Shown: piece by piece, positions 1-8,148 of the stretch
Position numbering within the stretch: the stretch's first letter is position 1
Layout: each line of letters starts with the position of its first letter
Virus record (IMG/VR): IMGVR_UViG_2651869696_000011
Direction: 5' to 3' (one strand)
Origin: a virus
Taxonomy: Duplodnaviria > Heunggongvirae > Uroviricota > Caudoviricetes
DNA length: 8,235 bases
The notes under the pieces: model-generated
The model's database searches: none
Told to the model about the DNA's origin: nothing
Seen by the model: only the letters and a program-made list of their open reading frames with translations
Made by a program: the position numbers and the translations under genes

Positions 1-1
1 G

Positions 2-478
2 AAGCAGAAAAAGCTTATTATGCTTCCATCGGAAACGATGATCTGGCAGCCTGAGTTCACAGATAAAACACTCTCCAGGAAACCCGGGGCGGTTCAGGCC
101 GCCGGTCGTTATATTCGTTCGCATGAAGCCGTTCAGCACATCAGCATCCGCGACCGGCTGAATGATTTTATGCAGCAGCACGGCACAGTACTGGCGGCCG
201 CACTGGCACCGGAGCTGATGGGCTACAGTGAGCTGACGGCCATTGCCCGAAACTGTGCCATACAGCGTGCCACAGATGCCCTGCGTGAAGCCCTCCTGTC
301 CTGGCTTGCGAAGGGTGAAAAAATTAATTATTCCGCACAGGATAGCGACATTTTAACGGCCATTGGATTCAGACCTGACGCGGCTTCGGTGGATGACAGC
401 CGTGAAAAATTCACCCCTGCGCAGAACATGATTTTTTCGCGTAAAAGTGCGCAACTGGCATCACGTCAGTCTGTGTAA
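2..478 (+). CDS. psu: Psu-like polarity-suppression / capsid-decoration protein, C-terminal ~158 aa; 5' end lies outside the window
   Basis: Reading frame is open from the window edge (no stop between position 2 and the first ATG at 20), stop at 476-478. It is immediately upstream of, and transcribed toward, the cos site, as psu is in P4. Identity is inferred from context and recalled similarity to P4 Psu, not from an alignment. Confidence 0.55.
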   Translation, partial: KQKKLIMLPSETMIWQPEFTDKTLSRKPGAVQAAGRYIRSHEAVQHISIRDRLNDFMQQHGTVLAAALAPELMGYSELTAIARNCAIQRATDALREALLSWLAKGEKINYSAQDSDILTAIGFRPDAASVDDSREKFTPAQNMIFSRKSAQLASRQSV

Positions 479-514
479 AATTCCCCGAAAATCCGCCCGT
501 TTTTACTGAAAAAA

Positions 515-543
515 GCCATGCATCGATAAGGTGCATGGCTTTG
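515..543 (+). terminator. Putative rho-independent terminator downstream of the psu-like gene
   Basis: Perfect 8-bp stem gccatgca (515-522) / tgcatggc (532-539) with a 9-nt loop, followed by tttg; lies 37 nt after the stop codon. Confidence 0.45.
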
Positions 544-569
544 CATGCGTTTCCCTGCCTCATTTTCTG

Positions 570-597
570 CAGACCGCGCCATTCCCGGCGCGGTCTG
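570..597. other. Perfect 11-bp stem-loop in the cos-proximal spacer
   Basis: cagaccgcgcc (570-580) / ggcgcggtctg (587-597) with the 6-nt loop attccc; no T-tract follows, so it is not a classical terminator. Possibly part of the terminase recognition region near cos. Confidence 0.4.
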
Positions 598-642
598 AGC
601 GTGTCAGTGCAACTGCATTAAAACCGCCCCGCAAAGCGGGCG

Positions 643-661
643 GGCGAGGCGGGGAAAGCAC
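643..661. other. P2/P4-type cos cohesive-end sequence (cosN)
   Basis: Exact 19-nt string ggcgaggcggggaaagcac, which I recall as the cohesive-end sequence shared by P2, 186 and P4. It lies between the psu-like gene and the integrase-proximal cargo, as in P4. Confidence 0.6.
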
Positions 662-724
662 TGCGCGCCCGGTTGGTGCTCGTTACTAATGTTTTTTGCG
701 CCCGAGCACCGTCGGGAAGGGGCT

Positions 725-733
725 GGGGGGGGG
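725..733. repeat. G9 homopolymer inside a G-rich run (711-750: ggg, gggg, ggggggggg, gggg)
   Basis: Read directly from the sequence; the tract spacing fits a canonical G-quadruplex motif. Intergenic. Confidence 0.5.
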
Positions 734-896
734 ATAGGGGAGGTGCCTGACGTCGCGCGGTAATGTTGGTAAGTGTGCCGCTGATGGCTTCTGAGGGGAG
801 TGGTAAATAGCCGCCTTTCGACGGTGTAGTGGGGAGAGTATTGCTTACAAACGTAATGAAATTGTTTGAGTAGCTAGGCTACTGCATAGGATTATT

Positions 897-925
897 TTGT
901 TCTGTTAATATATCCGTTAATATAG
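897..925 (+). promoter_or_regulatory. Putative promoter and tandem 9-bp direct repeat upstream of the cargo operon
   Basis: gttaatata repeated at 904-912 and 916-924 (12-bp register); ttgttc (897-902) and atatag (920-925) are a possible -35/-10 pair with a 17-nt spacer. Lies in the AT-rich leader about 35 nt before the start codon at 959. Weak, sequence-only call. Confidence 0.25.
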
Positions 926-958
926 ATAGATTGATCCAATTGAGTTTAAGGAATGAGT

Positions 959-1342
959 ATGTTTCAGATATCAGCTGGAGTGTTCTTTGATTTAGATAAA
1001 ATAGAAAAACACGATGGCACATTTGTTTTTTATTCAAATGTTGATGTGTCTTTCTCGGTGGAAAACACCTCCCCTCTTTTTAAAGCAAATAAAATAAGTC
1101 ATGATGGTATAAACTGTTATGTGGTAAACTATACTCTCCTGACCGAAAAACCAGAACGAATTGAAGCTGGAGTCGTAGTTAGGGCTGGTGATGAGGATTA
1201 TAGGCAACAATTTATTTTATTATGGGAATTCTATTTTGATTGTGTGGCTAGAGTAGAAAAAGAATCGGTTAAAAAATATGTGCATTATCAAATTTTAATA
1301 AACATCACTCAAAAATTGCGCTTGAAGTTGCCCCATATTTAG
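959..1342 (+). CDS. Hypothetical protein (127 aa), first gene of the AT-rich cargo operon
   Basis: ORF 953-1342; the second in-frame ATG at 959 has a good SD (aagga at 947-951, 7-nt spacer), whereas the ATG at 953 is too close to it. AT-rich codon usage. No family recognised. Confidence 0.6.
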   Translation: MFQISAGVFFDLDKIEKHDGTFVFYSNVDVSFSVENTSPLFKANKISHDGINCYVVNYTLLTEKPERIEAGVVVRAGDEDYRQQFILLWEFYFDCVARVEKESVKKYVHYQILINITQKLRLKLPHI

Positions 1343-2661
1343 TGGAGATTAACCGAAGAGTTTCATTTGATGATGTCTCTGGGTTTTCTGCTTTTATTAA
1401 AGATGTAGTGAATCTAAATAGATCTGCCTTTAAATCTTTAATGGCAGCGTTAAAAATAATTAGTGATTCAAAAGAATCATTGTCAACCAACTTTGACCTG
1501 ACTTATTCCATGTTAGTCTATGCCTTGGAGTCTTTGTCTCAAAGAAATGATAACTATAAGTCTGATTGGGATGACTACGATCAAAAAACCAGAGGTGAAT
1601 TAGAGTCTGTATTTGAGCATATGCCTGGTGAGGATGTTTGTAAAATTAAATCAATACTTATTGAAGGCAAACAATTCAGATTACAAAAAAGGTTCAAAGA
1701 TTTTATACTGAAAAATCTTGAAGAAAATTATTTCAATGAAACAGAGAGATATCCAATCCGCTATAGCTTCCTTAGTAGAGCTTTAGATAATTTATACAAA
1801 ATCAGGTCTTCTTTTGTCCATGAGCTTAAGCCACTTGATGCAATGATCTCGAAAGCCTACAATCCTGTTGGTGATTGTCTGGTTCTTTTTGGCGAACCTC
1901 ACTTCAGTTACTCTGGATTGCTTCGACTTCTTCGCCATGTGATAATAAATTTTTGCCGTAAAAACTACAGTCAAAAAAGAGAGTATGTTAATTGGGTGAT
2001 GGAAACATCGGGTGTAATGGTTGCAGAGATATCTGCACAATATTGGCTCTGGAATGCAGACGGATTTACAGCTAAAAGTATAGCGAAGTGGTTTAGTGAA
2101 TACCTAAATATGTTAAATTTAGGCGAAGTCACTGATTTGCAGTCTATCATGGACAAAATTGAGATAATCTATGACCAATCCAAAAAAGAATATAAAAATG
2201 GGTTGTTGTATTTTTATTTCTTATATAACTTAATGCATAATGGAAATAAGGGTGAATGGCTTGAGTTTGCGAACAAGCGAAGTTCTATACTTGTTTGTGA
2301 TATATATTGGTATTCATGCTCTCCATATTTATATAAATCATTTACTAATGTTTCAAATGGTATTGCTGATATAAAAACATTGAGAAACTTTTTGTCTTGT
2401 TTTAACGAATATGATAAAAATAAATTTAAGCCAAATCGTTTAAATCTCCCTGCAATGACCGAAGTAATTATGTTGGCTTGCGCAGCAAATTCATTCTTCA
2501 GAATTGGAATGTATCAAGACTATGTTTTAATGGGCAATAGAGCGATGAGAGAAATTGCTTCAGTAAAAGATGTATTTTATTATATAAAAGAACGATTAAG
2601 TAATTCACAACTTATTGAATTGGACGAGTGCTTGAGATTGTATAGAAAAAAGGGGGGCTAA
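1342..2661 (+). CDS. Hypothetical protein (439 aa), second gene of the cargo operon; contains an Rx4H (HEPN-like) motif
   Basis: Long uninterrupted ORF with AT-rich codon usage. The only possible start before the first internal ATG (1441) is GTG at 1342, which overlaps the upstream stop (TAGTG) and has no clear SD, so the start is uncertain. The motif R-SSFV-H is at codons 155-160 (nt 1804-1821). Confidence 0.8.
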   Translation: MEINRRVSFDDVSGFSAFIKDVVNLNRSAFKSLMAALKIISDSKESLSTNFDLTYSMLVYALESLSQRNDNYKSDWDDYDQKTRGELESVFEHMPGEDVCKIKSILIEGKQFRLQKRFKDFILKNLEENYFNETERYPIRYSFLSRALDNLYKIRSSFVHELKPLDAMISKAYNPVGDCLVLFGEPHFSYSGLLRLLRHVIINFCRKNYSQKREYVNWVMETSGVMVAEISAQYWLWNADGFTAKSIAKWFSEYLNMLNLGEVTDLQSIMDKIEIIYDQSKKEYKNGLLYFYFLYNLMHNGNKGEWLEFANKRSSILVCDIYWYSCSPYLYKSFTNVSNGIADIKTLRNFLSCFNEYDKNKFKPNRLNLPAMTEVIMLACAANSFFRIGMYQDYVLMGNRAMREIASVKDVFYYIKERLSNSQLIELDECLRLYRKKGG

Positions 2662-2669
2662 CCCCTTTT
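2648..2669. terminator. Putative bidirectional terminator at the convergent junction of the cargo gene and the integrase
   Basis: 8-bp stem aaaagggg (2648-2655) / cccctttt (2662-2669) with the 6-nt loop ggctaa, A-tract on one side and ttttatttttaa on the other. Both stop codons (2659-2661 plus strand, 2658-2660 minus strand) lie in or beside the loop. Confidence 0.4.
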
Positions 2670-3854
2670 ATTTTTAACGTATTCACCCCACCAATCCATC
2701 AATTCAATTCGCTGCACGAGATAAGTAGAACGATTGTATGCTTTTCTAACTTCATTTTTATCACTGTGGGCTAAGGCAGACTCGATAACATCAGGATTTA
2801 ATCCAGCTTCATTCATGGCTGTACTTGCTATTGAACGTAATCCATGGGCAACTAATTTTCCGCCAAAACCAATACGTTTTAAAGCTGCATTTGCAGTCTG
2901 ACTGTTCATTGGTTTCTTTGGGTCATTCCGACTCGGAAAAACATATTCACGATGAGCACTAATAGGCTTCATCACATTAAGAATCTCTAATGCCTGAGAT
3001 GATAGAGGAATTATGTGTTCCCGTTTAGCCTTCATCCGTTCGGCAGGAATCGTCCAGAGCTTTGCATGAAGATCGATTTCTTCCCACCGAGTACTGGAGG
3101 CTTCAGAAGGGCGCACAAGAGTCAGGAGTTGCCATTCAATTAGACAGCGAGTCGGGATAGACAGATTTGACATGACTAAAGAACGCATCAGCTTTGGTAA
3201 TTCTTCAGGTCGAAGCGTCGGCATGTTTTGTTTTTTTGGCTTTTCGAAGGCCATGCCAACACCTGATGCTGGGTTTGCATCAATCAAGCCAGTGTTAACC
3301 GCATAAATCATTATTTCGTTAATGCGTTGCACCAGACGACGTACAGTCTCTAATGCCCCACGAGCTTTGACTGGCTCAAGTGCTTCGACCAATGTTCTAG
3401 CTTTGATCTGCTGAACGGGCATCTCACCAACGGCGGGGAATACATCTTTTTCCAATGAGCGCCAAATATCTTTTGCATAATCAGGGGTAACACTTTTGCT
3501 TTTGAGCTGAAACCAATTAGCGGCGACCGTCGAGAAAATACTGTCCTGTGCGATTTGCTGCTGTTCCTCTGCAATTTCAGCTTGAATTTGCGGGTCAATT
3601 CCGTTGGCTAACAAGGAAAGGTAATCCGCTCTTAAGCGTCGGGCGTCAGCAAGTGAAAGGGCTGGGAAGGCTCCTAGCCCCATCATTGTCCGTTGCTTTG
3701 TTGCCGGACGTTGATAACGGAAACGCCATAACTTCTTACCGTTCGTTTTAACGAGTAGAAAAAGACCATCGCCATCATGCAACGTTAGATCCTTTTCTAA
3801 CGCTTTAGCGCGCAGTACTTCTGTGTTGGTCAGGGGGCGTGTCGTTCTTGCCAA
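2658..3854 (-). CDS. int: P4-family tyrosine integrase (CP4-57 IntA-like), 398 aa
   Basis: N-terminus MARTTRPLT...DGDGLFLLV...LWRFRYQRP and C-terminal HGLRSIAST...ALAH...VRKAYNRSTYLVQR are characteristic of P4-type integrases. Its 5' end faces the ssrA-derived att core, the usual tRNA/tmRNA-int arrangement. Confidence 0.9.
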   Translation of the reverse strand: MARTTRPLTNTEVLRAKALEKDLTLHDGDGLFLLVKTNGKKLWRFRYQRPATKQRTMMGLGAFPALSLADARRLRADYLSLLANGIDPQIQAEIAEEQQQIAQDSIFSTVAANWFQLKSKSVTPDYAKDIWRSLEKDVFPAVGEMPVQQIKARTLVEALEPVKARGALETVRRLVQRINEIMIYAVNTGLIDANPASGVGMAFEKPKKQNMPTLRPEELPKLMRSLVMSNLSIPTRCLIEWQLLTLVRPSEASSTRWEEIDLHAKLWTIPAERMKAKREHIIPLSSQALEILNVMKPISAHREYVFPSRNDPKKPMNSQTANAALKRIGFGGKLVAHGLRSIASTAMNEAGLNPDVIESALAHSDKNEVRKAYNRSTYLVQRIELMDWWGEYVKNKRG

Positions 3855-3884
3855 TTTGGCCGCTCCTTCATGAATTGGTATACG

Positions 3885-3935
3885 CGTTTAGGTATACATC
3901 CTACCGTATACCTAAACGTATACCAATAATCACTG
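3885..3935. promoter_or_regulatory. Imperfect inverted repeat in the integrase leader (candidate operator or integrase/IHF binding sites)
   Basis: Arms ttggtatacgcgtttaggtatac (3885-3907) and gtatacctaaacgtataccaa (3915-3935) are reverse complements apart from a 2-nt cg insertion; gtatac half-sites recur four times. Lies 30-80 nt upstream of the integrase start codon. Confidence 0.45.
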
Positions 3936-3973
3936 GATTTAGCTGGATATCCTCGGACAACGGTAGACACAAA

Positions 3974-4005
3974 AAAGCCCGCAGAGCTTGTGCTATGCGG
4001 GCTTT
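3974..4005 (-). terminator. Rho-independent terminator (minus-strand sense) downstream of the tmRNA 3'-end copy
   Basis: Stem agcccgca (3976-3983) / tgcgggct (3996-4003) with a 12-nt loop; on the minus strand it is followed by a run of six T (complement of aaaaaa at 3971-3976). Confidence 0.5.
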
Positions 4006-4038
4006 CAGGATTTCTCCGGACGTATCCGGAAGAGCAAG

Positions 4039-4065
4039 TGGTGGAGCTGGCGGGAGTTGAACCCG
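4039..4065 (-). other. Attachment-site core: 27-nt copy of the ssrA (tmRNA) 3' end without the rest of the gene
   Basis: tggtggagctggcgggagttgaacccg is the reverse complement of the tmRNA 3' terminus (...CGGGUUCAACUCCCGCCAGCUCCACCA). The match breaks off at 4066 and the sequence to the right is an AT-rich protein-coding gene, so this is a partial att repeat, not a functional ssrA. Confidence 0.7.
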
Positions 4066-4103
4066 TGTCTGAAAAATATTAACCTGTTGTTTTAATTATA
4101 TAT

Positions 4104-4883
4104 TTATCTGAACATGGCGTTTGCGGCGCTTTTGCGTATCTTCTCTAGACCTTTTGTAGTCCATTTCTCTGGTACAGGTGTAAACCGTAGTGCAAAATCT
4201 GCCTCCATATTATCACCACTGAAACGTGCCACTCCACGTTCCAATTTTGTTTGCCAAGTGACTTTTTTAGTTTTACCCTCTATATCTTGATATTCAATAA
4301 TTAATTTTGGACCAGTGAATGATGAAGAACCGACTAATTTAAGTCTATGTGAAAGATATGCTATATTCAATAGAATATCAATTGCCGCGGTTGGTACAAA
4401 AATGTTTTTTGACTTCTTATCTATACTATATGGTAACGAAAAATCAATATCGTAAGGTGTCGATAAAGTATTGTACATATATACTTTTCTTTCTTTTATT
4501 ATTTTGAATATTCCATACTGGGAGTCGGTTGTAAAAGATTTATCTTCTTTTTTGAATTTTTTCGAAAACAACTCTAAATATAGATTTATGTTTTTTTTAT
4601 AATTAAAATCCCAATGATATCTAAGTGAAATTGCCGCCCCCAATCCTATGTTTGAAAATTTTGTTTGTGGAAGCGTAGGGGCTTGTAAGATATCAACATG
4701 AAAACCGTTGAAATCGTTAACATTCATCTTGATATTTAAAGTGTCTATCACTAAATTGGGTTTATAAGAGAGCCTTCTTTGAAATATCGTTAACCATATT
4801 GCATATAATGCAGCAATTGCTGAAATGAAAGTACCAACTGAAGATATGTAGGTGATTAGTTTGTCGAATGTAATTGTAATCAA
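4104..4883 (-). CDS. Hypothetical membrane-anchored protein (259 aa), a moron between integrase and att
   Basis: Strongly AT-rich ORF with a predicted N-terminal transmembrane helix (ITYISSVGTFISAIAALYAIWLTIF). The only start upstream of the first internal Met (codon 53) is TTG at 4881-4883, preceded by GGGGA at a 7-nt spacing. No family recognised. Confidence 0.65.
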   Translation of the reverse strand: MITITFDKLITYISSVGTFISAIAALYAIWLTIFQRRLSYKPNLVIDTLNIKMNVNDFNGFHVDILQAPTLPQTKFSNIGLGAAISLRYHWDFNYKKNINLYLELFSKKFKKEDKSFTTDSQYGIFKIIKERKVYMYNTLSTPYDIDFSLPYSIDKKSKNIFVPTAAIDILLNIAYLSHRLKLVGSSSFTGPKLIIEYQDIEGKTKKVTWQTKLERGVARFSGDNMEADFALRFTPVPEKWTTKGLEKIRKSAANAMFR

Positions 4884-4924: not shown

Positions 4925-6097
4925 TTAATTATGATTATGCAAATGATTTATCGATGTAAAGTTATCATACTCTTTAAGATACGAACCATAGTGCCTGAAA
5001 AGCATCTCCGGCCCTTTATGCCCCATTTGAGCTGCAAGCCAAAACAGGTTTGCTCCTCGGCTGATATGGCTGGTGGCGAATGTATGCCTGGTTTGATATG
5101 GGTTTCTGTAACGAATACCTGCTTTTCGCAATGTTGGCACCCATGCTTTTTTCCTAATTGCATCAGCACTTGCCCAAGGCTTATTGGTCTTTGGATCTTC
5201 AAAGACAGTAGCATCCTTCATGAATGTAAATGGCTTCTGATTTATCAGCGCCAACATTGCCTCTTCTGTCAGTTCAACTTTCCGAGTACCTGCTTTTGTC
5301 TTTGTCCCTTTGATAACACCGACAACACTTGCGCTCTGGACATGGGCAGTTTTTCCAACAAAGTCGATATCACGCCATCGAAGGGCACATAATTCAGAAC
5401 TACGCAGGCCTGTATGTATAGCGAACCGGAACAGATTTTCCCATTGTTTGTTTCCGGCTGCTGCTAGTAATGCATCAACTTCTGCTGGTGATAGCGGATC
5501 AACTACGTAGCTGCTTTCTGCTTCTGACTTATCACTTTGGTAGCGCGAAGCTGTTACTAACGATACGGGGTTAATTTGAAGTACCCCATCGGTCACGGCT
5601 TCATCAAGTGCTGACCGCAGGAAAGATAACTGGTTGCGAATGGTTTTTAAGGTCGTTTTCTGGCTTTGAATCCACGCTTTCAGGGTTGCTGGTGTTAATT
5701 CACTTGCAGGGCAAATGTGAAGTGAGGCTAACGCACTACGGCATTTTTTATAACCACCGATCGTGGATGGTGAAAGTTTCCTCGTTTCGCAGATTTCAAG
5801 GTATTCGTCCAGGTACATTTTTACCGTTTTGCCTGCAGCAGCATTACCAAAAATTTTCAAACGAGCAGAACGGGGAAAATATTCCGCATAAATGAATGTT
5901 CCCCTTTCGATCTTATTATGAATTTCGCCGAGTGTGCGCTCAGCGTATTTAATGTTCTTTGGTGTTACTTCCAGATTGGAAAGAGGCTCACGACATTTAA
6001 CTCCTTTGTAGGTGAAAGTTATATTGATCGTTTCGCCCTGGCGGTGTTTCCTGATTGTTACGCCGCGCGGTAGTTTGAGCAGTTTTGTCTGGCCCAT
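4925..6097 (-). CDS. int: Tyrosine integrase (390 aa)
   Basis: C-terminal catalytic region carries the recombinase residues (TGLRSSE; RHTFATSH; MGHKGPEMLFRHYGSY). ATG at 6095-6097 is preceded by gtgagg. Its 5' end overlaps the 3' end of the excisionase gene by 40 nt. Confidence 0.9.
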   Translation of the reverse strand: MGQTKLLKLPRGVTIRKHRQGETINITFTYKGVKCREPLSNLEVTPKNIKYAERTLGEIHNKIERGTFIYAEYFPRSARLKIFGNAAAGKTVKMYLDEYLEICETRKLSPSTIGGYKKCRSALASLHICPASELTPATLKAWIQSQKTTLKTIRNQLSFLRSALDEAVTDGVLQINPVSLVTASRYQSDKSEAESSYVVDPLSPAEVDALLAAAGNKQWENLFRFAIHTGLRSSELCALRWRDIDFVGKTAHVQSASVVGVIKGTKTKAGTRKVELTEEAMLALINQKPFTFMKDATVFEDPKTNKPWASADAIRKKAWVPTLRKAGIRYRNPYQTRHTFATSHISRGANLFWLAAQMGHKGPEMLFRHYGSYLKEYDNFTSINHLHNHN

Positions 6098-6264
6098 TTT
6101 GCAACCTCACTAAGATCAATCCACCTCTCCTTAACGCCTTCAACCTTTAAAACCTGAACACCTTCACGCCAAACACCGCGCTGTACACGTTTGTTTATTG
6201 CTTCAGGAGTTTCGCCAGTTTCTTTGCAATAAGTTGAGATTGGAACACAATCGAGGTTCAGCAT
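6058..6264 (-). CDS. xis: Excisionase (Xis-like, 68 aa)
   Basis: Small basic protein immediately upstream of and overlapping the integrase, the lambda-like int/xis arrangement. The ORF track starts at GTG 6276, but the ATG at 6262-6264 has a better SD (ggaga, 5-nt spacer). Confidence 0.65.
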   Translation of the reverse strand: MLNLDCVPISTYCKETGETPEAINKRVQRGVWREGVQVLKVEGVKERWIDLSEVAKWARQNCSNYRAA

Positions 6265-6323
6265 ATGTTTCTCCACTTAGCCCGCTGCACACGGGCAGTA
6301 ATATCAAATTCCAGTCCTGATAA

Positions 6324-6539
6324 TTAATTTTGTTCCCTGGTTGCTACCTGTTTTATTGGCCTGATGCTGTCCAGTAGCAGACGGCGACGCATGTTAGGTG
6401 CACCCCAACGGTAACCAGTCTTTTTGTCGTAGGATTCACAACGTCCGGCAACCCAGGACGTTTCAGTGGAATGTAATTTCATCCGCTTTTCACCGTCTCG
6501 GGTGATAACAATTCCTGTATGAGTTTTTATCACGCTCAT
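6324..6539 (-). CDS. Hypothetical prophage protein (71 aa)
   Basis: Its ATG overlaps the upstream gene's stop (ATGA at 6536-6539), indicating translational coupling. No family recognised. Confidence 0.5.
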   Translation of the reverse strand: MSVIKTHTGIVITRDGEKRMKLHSTETSWVAGRCESYDKKTGYRWGAPNMRRRLLLDSIRPIKQVATREQN

Positions 6540-6898
6540 TTCTTAGTCTCCGGTGCTTTCGGTATTACTGCCCAGTGAGTAATATTGACGTTTTCAAGGT
6601 CCCCGACTTGAAATGTCCACTGCCATTCTCCGGTTTCTTTTTGCCCCCATGTGTACCAGAGAGAACGCCAGCCAATCAGCCAGCCTTCTCCGTTAGCATC
6701 AAATAACAGAACACTTTCATTTGCTGGCGGCAGTTCAGCTGACACTGGTATTACTTTGTTTTCCAGTGCTGCACATTTAGCTTCAAGCGCATCAAATTTA
6801 CGCACCAGGTATTCAGCATCCGTTTCATTCACTTTCAGATCTCGCGGTACACATTTCCCGCGCAGAAACCCTTCCATTTCGAAAACATTCATGCGCAT
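6536..6898 (-). CDS. DUF551-like phage protein (120 aa; YfdS-like)
   Basis: Trp-rich C-terminal segment (GWLIGWRSLWYTWGQ...ITHWAVIPKAPE) resembles the DUF551 signature found in lambdoid prophage early regions. Its start ATG (6896-6898) lies 7 nt inside the upstream HD gene (ATGCGCATGA). Confidence 0.55.
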   Translation of the reverse strand: MRMNVFEMEGFLRGKCVPRDLKVNETDAEYLVRKFDALEAKCAALENKVIPVSAELPPANESVLLFDANGEGWLIGWRSLWYTWGQKETGEWQWTFQVGDLENVNITHWAVIPKAPETKK

Positions 6899-7425
6899 TT
6901 GTGTAACTCCGATAATTCGTTAAAGCGTTCCATAAACATCCCGTAGGCATGGCCTGGAGCCAGTGGAATCACGTTGAATATCTCTGTTGCCGGGATACCT
7001 TCCAGCACAGGCCAGAAAGAGCCATCATCAAGCCCGAGATCGCGGCGTTCGGTTGCCAGCATGATGAGATCGGCATATTTCACGGGTGTACTCATAACCG
7101 GGGGTAACCCGTATTTCTCACGGATTACGGCGTCTATTTTTTCTTCCATCCGTTTATAGTCAGGAAGAAGGCGTTTCAGTGGTGCGGGGATGTCCTGGCA
7201 ATACGCTTCTGTTGCATCATGCATTAACGCTTCAAAAGCAAACTCCTGCGGTACCAGCTGGCTGCAAAGCACCGCATGTTGGGCGACGCTGTAGAAGTGT
7301 GAAAGATGACCAGCAAAGCGACAGATATTTGAAAGGGAAACCGCGATATCGTTAATAACGATGTCGTCTTTATTTATCTTGTCATAATAAAAATGCTTCC
7401 CGGAAAAAGTTTTAATAAATGACAT
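6889..7425 (-). CDS. yfdR: HD-domain phosphohydrolase, YfdR-like (178 aa)
   Basis: H...HD motif (RFAGH, SVAQH, MHDATEAY) typical of HD-superfamily enzymes. The ORF track begins at TTG 7506, but the ATG at 7423-7425 (MSFIKTF...) has a strong SD (gtggaga, 5-nt spacer) and gives the recalled 178-aa length of E. coli CPS-53 YfdR. Symbol is from memory, not a search. Confidence 0.7.
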   Translation of the reverse strand: MSFIKTFSGKHFYYDKINKDDIVINDIAVSLSNICRFAGHLSHFYSVAQHAVLCSQLVPQEFAFEALMHDATEAYCQDIPAPLKRLLPDYKRMEEKIDAVIREKYGLPPVMSTPVKYADLIMLATERRDLGLDDGSFWPVLEGIPATEIFNVIPLAPGHAYGMFMERFNELSELHKCA

Positions 7426-7545
7426 TTCGTTCTCCACTTTATATGCGCTGCACTGCGCTGAATTTTGGGAAAAGGAAGCCCTCGCCATCCGGCGATTATT
7501 AAGCAATTACGTTTCAATAGATGCCCCCGCAGGGGCGGTTAGTTT

Positions 7546-7740
7546 CTCCACAAAACAGAGAAGAACACCTGCGGTGACCGCCGCCCGGATGGATTGGGTT
7601 ATGAGCCCGTCGTCCGGTGATGCTCTTCTCTGTTTTGTAAAAAGAGCGGTACCAGCCGGAAGCAAGGGTACAAACTGGTACCGCCAGGACTACACACAGC
7701 ATAAAGTTGTGGTGCCGGGTGCCTCCCGGTGCCTGGCGAA
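7546..7740. other. GC-rich structured non-coding region (candidate ncRNA or cis-regulatory element)
   Basis: 15-bp inverted repeat acaaaacagagaaga (7550-7564) / tcttctctgttttgt (7624-7638) enclosing 59 nt. Perfect 10-bp hairpin gcggtaccag (7646-7655) / ctggtaccgc (7675-7684) with a 19-nt loop. Three ggtgcc direct repeats (7711-7733). The region is open in several frames on both strands with no RBS-supported ORF, which is typical of GC-rich non-coding DNA. Confidence 0.4.
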
Positions 7741-7938
7741 GGTTGCACACCAGACGGGTGGGTATCCACAGAAGGTCGACTGTCAGCCTCAACCTTAACC
7801 CGCGTGCGCTGAGCCGCATTCACCACAACGCTAAGGATTCTCTTTGGTTGAAAATACTTAGCTGTTATGTGCCTGTCTTTTCACCACTTCAGGCTCGGTG
7901 GTATCCTTTTAAGCCCGTATACATAAAAGGAAAATCAA

Positions 7939-8148
7939 ATGACTTTTGATGAAAAAGAACTTGATAATGCAATTAATAAAATCATCGTAACGTCGCTCTT
8001 TTCCTGTCTCAGCGACACTCAGCAGAAACAGTTCTACGAATCGGCTTTCAACATGATCGAGCGTTGTTGTTTCTGCGATGCCGACGAGTTACCTGAAAAA
8101 ATCAGGAAACAGTTGGCTGATGCTCTTCGAGTGCGACTTTCTGGGTGA
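7939..8148 (+). CDS. Hypothetical protein (69 aa), divergent from the int-xis operon
   Basis: ATG at 7939 preceded by aagga (7927-7931) with a 7-nt spacer. No family recognised. Confidence 0.5.
   Translation: MTFDEKELDNAINKIIVTSLFSCLSDTQQKQFYESAFNMIERCCFCDADELPEKIRKQLADALRVRLSG

Follow-up and report, generated by a model that had tools for sequence, protein, structure and literature searches.

An orphan 27-nt ssrA 3′ end as the probable internal junction between a P4-like satellite and a temperate prophage in tandem

Tandem occupancy of ssrA, the tmRNA gene, is a textbook trait of enterobacterial genomes, and tandem integrative arrays at tRNA and tmRNA genes are said to have been described by Williams in 2003 under the title "Traffic at the tmRNA gene". 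Islander resolves tandem tDNA arrays routinely, and in its results no target is enriched as strongly as the tmRNA gene (Hudson et al., 2015, PMC4383910); the framework for tandem tRNA/tmRNA arrays is given by Islander and TIGER (PMC4383910; Mageeney et al., 2020, PMC7192596). Among the elements concerned, P4-like satellites have been described by Moura de Sousa and Rocha (2021, PMC8628076), and the hotspot for defence genes that they carry between psu and int by Rousset et al. (2022, PMC9122126). Among the temperate phages, site-specific integration has been shown experimentally for the Citrobacter phage ΦNP, whose attP/attB is the 25-bp sequence TGGTGGAGCTGGCGGGAGTTGAACC and whose integration at K-12 ssrA, with duplication of TGGTGGAGCTGGCGGGAGTTGAACC, has been validated (PMC6456863).

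The window, by which we mean the whole stretch of 8,235 nucleotides analysed here, holds parts of both kinds of element, and a 27-nt sequence at 4039-4065 is very probably the internal junction of two independent integrative elements that lie in tandem at the 3′ end of ssrA. The features, with positions and strands of the window, are the following.

1-478, plus strand: psu, polarity suppression protein of a P4-like satellite (Pfam PF07455 Psu, E 3.9e-62)
479-661, plus strand: P4 right end with a P2/P4-type cos (19-nt cohesive end at 643-661)
953-2661, plus strand: AT-rich cargo gene in the psu-int hotspot of the satellite (GC about 30%)
2658-3854, minus strand: Int1, P4-type tyrosine integrase of the satellite (Pfam Arm-DNA-bind_3, Phage_int_M and Phage_integrase)
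3855-4038, minus strand: P′ arm of the satellite, bounded directly after the CCA (junction alignment)
3874-3927, no strand: nested inverted repeats GGTATAC/TTAGGTATAC, directly upstream of int1 (repeat search)
3974-4005, minus strand: Rho-independent terminator from the satellite arm, with the stem starting 34 nt past the CCA
4039-4065, minus strand: orphan ssrA 3′-end core, a hybrid att site that is both the distal prophage junction and the ssrA-proximal satellite junction
4066-4103, minus strand: phage P arm, with degenerate ssrA homology in 4066-4074 (tmRNA pseudogene remnant)
4104-4883, minus strand: AT-rich cargo gene of 259 aa in the int-attP slot (phrog_7259, function unknown; GC about 30%)
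4925-6097, minus strand: Int2, ssrA-specific tyrosine integrase of a temperate phage (Pfam Arm-DNA-bind_2 and Phage_integrase)
6058-6276, minus strand: excisionase gene xis, overlapping the start of int2 (phrog_2917, E 1.6e-45)
6324-8143, minus strand: phage early-left genes (DUF551 protein, YfdR-like 5′-deoxynucleotidase and others), common to SfV, mEp460 and related lambdoid phages

As in the described tDNA arrays, a 3′ fragment in the orientation of the target gene marks an element end and each element encodes a separate tyrosine integrase; the full-length fragment comes here from the phage only, that of the satellite being degenerate, and nothing essential differs. Features that the left part has in common with P4-like satellites and with CP4-57 are the Psu protein, a cos that matches that of P4 exactly, AT-rich cargo of variable content lying between psu/cos and int, and an integrase of the P4 type that starts about 185-200 nt past the CCA of ssrA, the two being separated by a conserved terminator. 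As to differences, P4 itself integrates at leuX, the IntA of the cryptic K-12 prophage CP4-57 is just 60% identical to Int1, and the cargo gene of the window is frameshifted. The right part resembles ΦNP and LLS in its integrase (Int2 is 92% identical to that of ΦNP and 86% to that of LLS), in the overlap of xis and int, in a single slot for changing cargo that separates int from attP and in the presence of the ssrA 3′ end in attP, and differs from them in the cargo of that slot and in the phage arm 5′ of the core.

The sequence TGGTGGAGCTGGCGGGAGTTGAACCCG occurs once in the window, at 4039-4065 on the plus strand, and is the exact reverse complement of the final 27 nt of E. coli ssrA, as compared with the intact gene of NS-NP030; the ssrA sense is therefore the minus strand of the window. 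In 200 dinucleotide-preserving shuffles it was matched 0 times, even with up to 3 mismatches allowed, and a chance match was on this basis discarded. Past the core, imperfect homology to ssrA continues up to 4074, with 2 mismatches (window TTTCAGACA vs ssrA TTTCGGACG). ARAGORN returned zero tmRNA and zero tRNA genes over the whole window, and the Rfam tmRNA model gave a partial match at 4039-4114 that covers the 3′ end only and scores 18 bits vs a gathering score of 47, so that the 27-mer is to be regarded as an orphan fragment. The same two results rule out a functional tmRNA gene at 4039-4065, and a tmRNA or tRNA hidden elsewhere in the window was likewise dismissed after the ARAGORN and Rfam searches gave none. 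The fragment, which reproduces the 3′ terminus of its target gene exactly and marks an element boundary in the manner used by Islander, does not function as a tmRNA; it is a scar, and one that could serve again as a site of recombination. A previous sequence-only reading of this DNA had described an orphan 27-nt ssrA 3′ core that is neighboured by an AT-rich protein gene instead of the tmRNA body, and this description holds, the neighbour being the 259-aa gene at 4104-4883; the distances it gave are also right, Int1 starting 185 nt and Int2 ending 860 nt from the core.

The boundaries of the two elements were examined by a five-way alignment of the junction, in ssrA sense, between the window and the complete E. 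coli genomes NS-NP030, GPEC1209, R12 and C1. On the 5′ side of the core the window follows the phage carriers, past the CCA it follows the satellite carriers, and the switch takes place exactly at the 27-mer. Genomes without one of the elements confirm these boundaries, as Islander asks: in NS-NP030 and ATCC 8739 the satellite stands beside an intact ssrA (99.7-99.9% identity over window 94-4074, with 99.9% for NS-NP030), while R12 holds the phage only and matches the window rightwards from the core, its orphan core being followed by the native flank up to glaH. Moreover, in C1 the phage adjoins a different island with a P4-type integrase. Both elements are found in GPEC1209, RM10740 and AR_0369, which have the same hybrid junction and, about 40 kb rightward, an intact ssrA, on the same strand as the core, together with smpB. 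The order in GPEC1209 is glaH, native flank, degenerate relic, 11-kb satellite, core, cargo-int2-xis, the rest of a prophage of about 40 kb, ssrA and smpB, and RM10740 and AR_0369 are laid out in the same way. Since the window contains neither an intact ssrA nor the outer ends of the elements, the array is reconstructed from these close relatives. The sequence-only reading had proposed a tandem integration at the tmRNA gene by two different integrases, had expected the intact ssrA to the right and had suggested a comparison with strains lacking one or both elements; the junction alignment and the single-element strains agree with the first proposal, the three genomes with the identical junction have ssrA where it was expected, and homology breaks at the core as predicted.

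A query spanning the junction (3965-4140) was covered to at least 80% in 10 of the 5,426 complete genomes, and no complete E. coli genome matched the whole window at a coverage of at least 80%. The nearest tandem, that of GPEC1209, carries another satellite cargo (DUF262 and HEPN), and from these two results it follows that the exact pairing of phage and satellite variant is absent from the collection. NS-NP030 is itself a tandem, with a second island encoding a P4-type integrase (L010 12106-13335) directly past the satellite, the arm of which begins right after the degenerate CCA of the satellite. When species-representative genomes were scanned with the phage arm plus core, Atlantibacter sp. 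RC6 (L015 2213-2330) was the single match; in it, arm and core are followed by a spacer and terminator of the type of K-12 CP4-57 and, beyond the terminator, by large ORFs with no gene of integrase size, which in size and layout resemble a fimbrial chaperone-usher operon. The CP4-57-type "arm" may in some lineages be the native ssrA terminator.

On the satellite side, psu is cut at its 5′ end by the edge of the window (its annotated length in NS-NP030 and GPEC1209 is 573 nt, which puts the start before position 1). Positions 479-642 are 98.8% identical to 11461-11624 of P4, where the linear record ends, and are followed at 643-661 by an exact match, with an expected number by chance of 0, to GGCGAGGCGGGGAAAGCAC, the 19-nt cohesive end of P2/P4; this stretch provides the P2/P4-type cos of a P4-like element. 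The element is judged to have the core set of a P4-like satellite, namely psu, delta/ogr, sid, alpA, epsilon, the alpha primase and an integrase. Psu and Int1 lie in the window itself and the others outside it, where the satellite goes on in NS-NP030 and GPEC1209 with an ogr/Delta-like gene, an HTH regulator, an Icd-like gene, a derepression protein and a primase-helicase; it also encodes a hypothetical protein, labelled "glycoprotein 3" in AR_0369, which judging by its position is probably Sid. Int1 scores 591 bits with the NCBIfam model NF007246 (cut-off 434).

The cargo at 953-2661 is split into two ORFs of 129 and 439 aa by the loss of one base, A7 to A6, at about 1271-1276, which is visible in the alignment, its homologue being a single CDS of 567 aa in NS-NP030 and ATCC 8739; the split could be that of a pseudogene, a case of phase variation or a homopolymer sequencing error. 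A weak PADLOC match to Cas13-ApeA (HEPN) was obtained (E 3.6e-6), and searches of Pfam and NCBIfam with this cargo gave no match. The locus is entered as "hypothetical" in the P4 hotspot in Table S1A of Rousset et al. (2022, PMC9122126), where the ATCC 8739 copy of the satellite appears.

The arm between int1 and the core (3855-4038) is identical to that of NS-NP030, where it lies 3′ of the intact ssrA, over the stretch aligned, shows a few substitutions vs GPEC1209, and diverges from R12 (native flank) and C1 (other island) at the first base after the CCA. Its terminator has 14-nt arms, 93% complementary, then a T-run, and has been kept in the arms of three elements with P4-type integrases, namely K-12 CP4-57, the C1 island and the satellite of the window. 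The nested repeats are probable candidates for arm-type or operator sites of Int1; copies of TTAGGTATAC, exact or with 1 mismatch, are confined in the GPEC1209 satellite to the vicinity of its two ends. The Salmonella sRNA IsrM gave a partial Rfam match at 3971-4078 on the minus strand (31 bits), which is due to its 3′ terminator, the same one as in the arms of the P4-type-integrase elements. IsrM may sit in an equivalent arm region; a literature search for its genomic position returned nothing useful.

At the other end of the satellite the junction is TTCAAACTCCGCCAGCCCA in GPEC1209 and NS-NP030, and one base shorter still in ATCC 8739. This relic (L006 10683-10701; L010 ~11920-11945; L011 ~2070-2090) is degenerate, with 19 nt and a 4-base gap vs ssrA; its ungapped identity to attB is limited to the terminal CCA, and the bases past this CCA vary with the downstream content. 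The sequence-only reading had asked for further copies of the core: one is present in the intact ssrA, but a third 27-mer at the outer end of the satellite is absent from GPEC1209 with up to 5 mismatches allowed, only the gapped 19-nt relic being there. Since the outer junction is degenerate and does not duplicate the 27-mer, the 27-nt direct repeat belongs to the phage. The boundary of the satellite, as placed by the alignment, sits exactly at the CCA, so that the 27 nt serve also as its ssrA-proximal att site, and the degenerate outer repeat with its 4-base gap means that canonical excision by Int1 is not assured.

On the phage side, the arm at 4066-4103 is identical or nearly so in the phage carriers GPEC1209, R12 and C1 and unlike the ssrA body of NS-NP030. 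Of 5,426 complete E. coli genomes, 412 contain the int2 gene. Int1 and Int2, which share the PF00589 domain but have different arm-binding domains, are 24% identical over 100 aa and unrelated beyond the catalytic region, so that each element shows an integrase of its own as in Islander. The integrase gene lies close to the attachment site and overlaps the excisionase gene, an overlap also present in ΦNP and LLS, and the order int-cargo-core, with an attP that holds the ssrA 3′ end, is that of the ΦNP/LLS type. In the free Escherichia phage LLS, an attP and a 39-nt "tmRNA pseudogene" are annotated after xis-int and one cargo gene, and this attP consists of the 27-nt core (0 mismatches), then CCA-ATCATGATTGG..., then a terminator; the record of ΦNP ends with the core, with 1 mismatch, and its 25-bp site falls within the 27-mer of the window. 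From the LLS attP it follows that members of this phage family bring with them the ssrA 3′ end and, next to it, about 170 nt of sequence like that downstream of ssrA. Indeed, the intact ssrA of GPEC1209 is flanked by a copy of the phage type, which shows 92% identity to the native flank by glaH (copies of the ~170-nt flank, terminator included, are at L005 40526-40760 and L008 6093-6260), and, the phage bringing such a near-native flank, the ssrA into which it has integrated retains a near-native 3′ context. The reading of CCA-ATCATGATTGG... as a purely native flank was abandoned: it is native in R12, but the phage has its own 92% copy at the intact ssrA. In K-12, ssrA is already followed by CP4-57, with its P4-type integrase, and ΦNP lysogens of K-12 should for this reason hold a tandem of the type seen in the window.

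Other members of the family have different genes in the slot between int2 and attP, which is thus a place for variable cargo: the sibling prophage of AR_0369 has a defence pair of DarT toxin and NADAR antitoxin, ΦNP has an AAA ATPase, and LLS has a homologue with 27% identity to the 259-aa protein. The gene of the window was found in 50 genomes of the complete E. coli collection. In the model of its 259-aa product (pLDDT 78) a long helix at the N-terminus is followed by a beta-sandwich and then by a helix at the C-terminus, and a fold search with this model yielded no informative match; the N-terminal helix is possibly a membrane anchor. That the protein is an undescribed prophage factor of defence or superinfection exclusion that acts as a single gene is a tentative idea, to which we give rather little weight, and a parallel to it would be the ApeA-like 567-aa gene, if this were switched by slippage at its A7 tract.

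In the early-left region, Rfam STnc100 gives a sub-threshold match at 7637-7851 on the minus strand (42.1 bits vs a gathering score of 47, E 1.2e-6), which overlaps the ORF at 7514-7819, annotated by RefSeq in related prophages as "frameshifted hypothetical protein"; instead of a gene, this stretch may represent a structured RNA. The prophages of GPEC1209, AR_0369 and RM10740 have in common the int2/xis/early-left module and a pair of type II restriction-modification genes beside ssrA. In the late regions GPEC1209 and AR_0369 carry an HK97-type head and a Mu-like contractile tail and RM10740 a lambda-like siphovirus tail, and prophages with the int2 module are strongly mosaic in their late genes.

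Read in ssrA sense, that is, from right to left, the array would begin with the intact ssrA about 40 kb to the right, continue with a prophage of about 40 kb that ends with xis-int2-cargo, reach the orphan core and pass, beyond it, into an 11-kb P4-like satellite opening with its own terminator and int1, after which the native flank by glaH would follow. Recombination by Int2 inside the identity block, provided by the copy of the ssrA 3′ end included in the phage attP, would rebuild ssrA at one prophage end, with a terminator supplied by the phage, and would leave the displaced 27-nt core at the other, where it would abut the satellite arm with the terminator at 3974-4005. Int2 together with Xis could remove the phage and give the satellite-only state; Int1 could remove the satellite and give the phage-only state, the satellite circle in this case joining TTCAAACTCCGCCAGCCCA to CTTGCTCTTCC. 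The strand-exchange position within the core, the current excision competence of both elements and the order of arrival are points that we infer. In the prophages next to such satellites in GPEC1209 and RM10740 the packaging genes are of the P27 family or lambda-like and the tails Mu-like or lambda-like, whereas the cos of the satellite is of the P2/P4 type, which argues, on established P2/P4 biology, that the two elements are adjacent through a common target site and presumably not as helper and satellite.

That the window could be a single composite mobile element with two integrases is suggested by the contiguity of its halves and by a junction that recurs in 10 genomes, but each half is found alone elsewhere and then ends exactly at the core, the cargo on the two sides varies independently, and the satellite has its own P4 cos while the attP of free LLS is without a satellite, all of which makes this explanation very improbable. 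Still less credence can be given to the 27-mer as the remnant of a deleted or rearranged ssrA, or as a product of chance or assembly: although the gene is represented by a 3′ fragment alone and ARAGORN detects no tmRNA, chance is excluded by the shuffles, what lies 5′ of the core is phage arm, as in the attP of the free phage, and not chromosome adjacent to ssrA, the genomes with the same junction retain an intact ssrA, and an artefact would have had to occur in 10 independently finished genomes.

Within the preferred reading of two independent elements in tandem, the order of arrival is not readable from the structure, because both orders yield the same product and the second element can enter either restored core (PMC7192596); the sequence-only reading, which had the satellite come before the phage, stands as to the tandem, and its order is mildly favoured. 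We consider it somewhat the better guess that the satellite occupied ssrA before the phage entered the rebuilt ssrA and displaced it outward. After entry of the satellite a single full 27-nt core would be left, its outer copy being degenerate, so that entry of the phage would necessarily give the arrangement observed; there is a laboratory precedent in the lysogeny by ΦNP of K-12 with CP4-57 resident at ssrA (PMC6456863), and in other genomes this phage end adjoins other resident islands or satellites that differ in cargo, which suggests that the phage is a frequent newcomer. Against this stands the identical final structure produced by the opposite order (PMC7192596), in which the phage would have come first, as in R12, and the satellite would have entered at the displaced distal core and not at the intact ssrA. 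This second order is possible, though on balance doubtful: a phage-only state does exist (R12), the distal core with the native flank matches an unoccupied attB in its 27 nt and in the sequence that follows, and entry at either restored core is a general principle (PMC7192596), but the satellite would face two usable sites, the layout ssrA-satellite-phage was seen in none of the genomes examined, and arms of the satellite type by an intact ssrA seem to be much more frequent than hybrid junctions that are spanned. A mild preference is thus given to the satellite-first over the phage-first order.

Since tDNA arrays are standard, and the phage family, the satellite family and the hotspot have all been described, the finding is one already known; the observation is real, correctly read, ordinary and well documented. 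Its main value is in correct annotation, with the boundaries of the elements fixed to the base, the satellite and the adjoining prophage recognised as separate elements with a common target site, and two uncharacterised AT-rich cargo genes flagged in slots known to hold defence genes.
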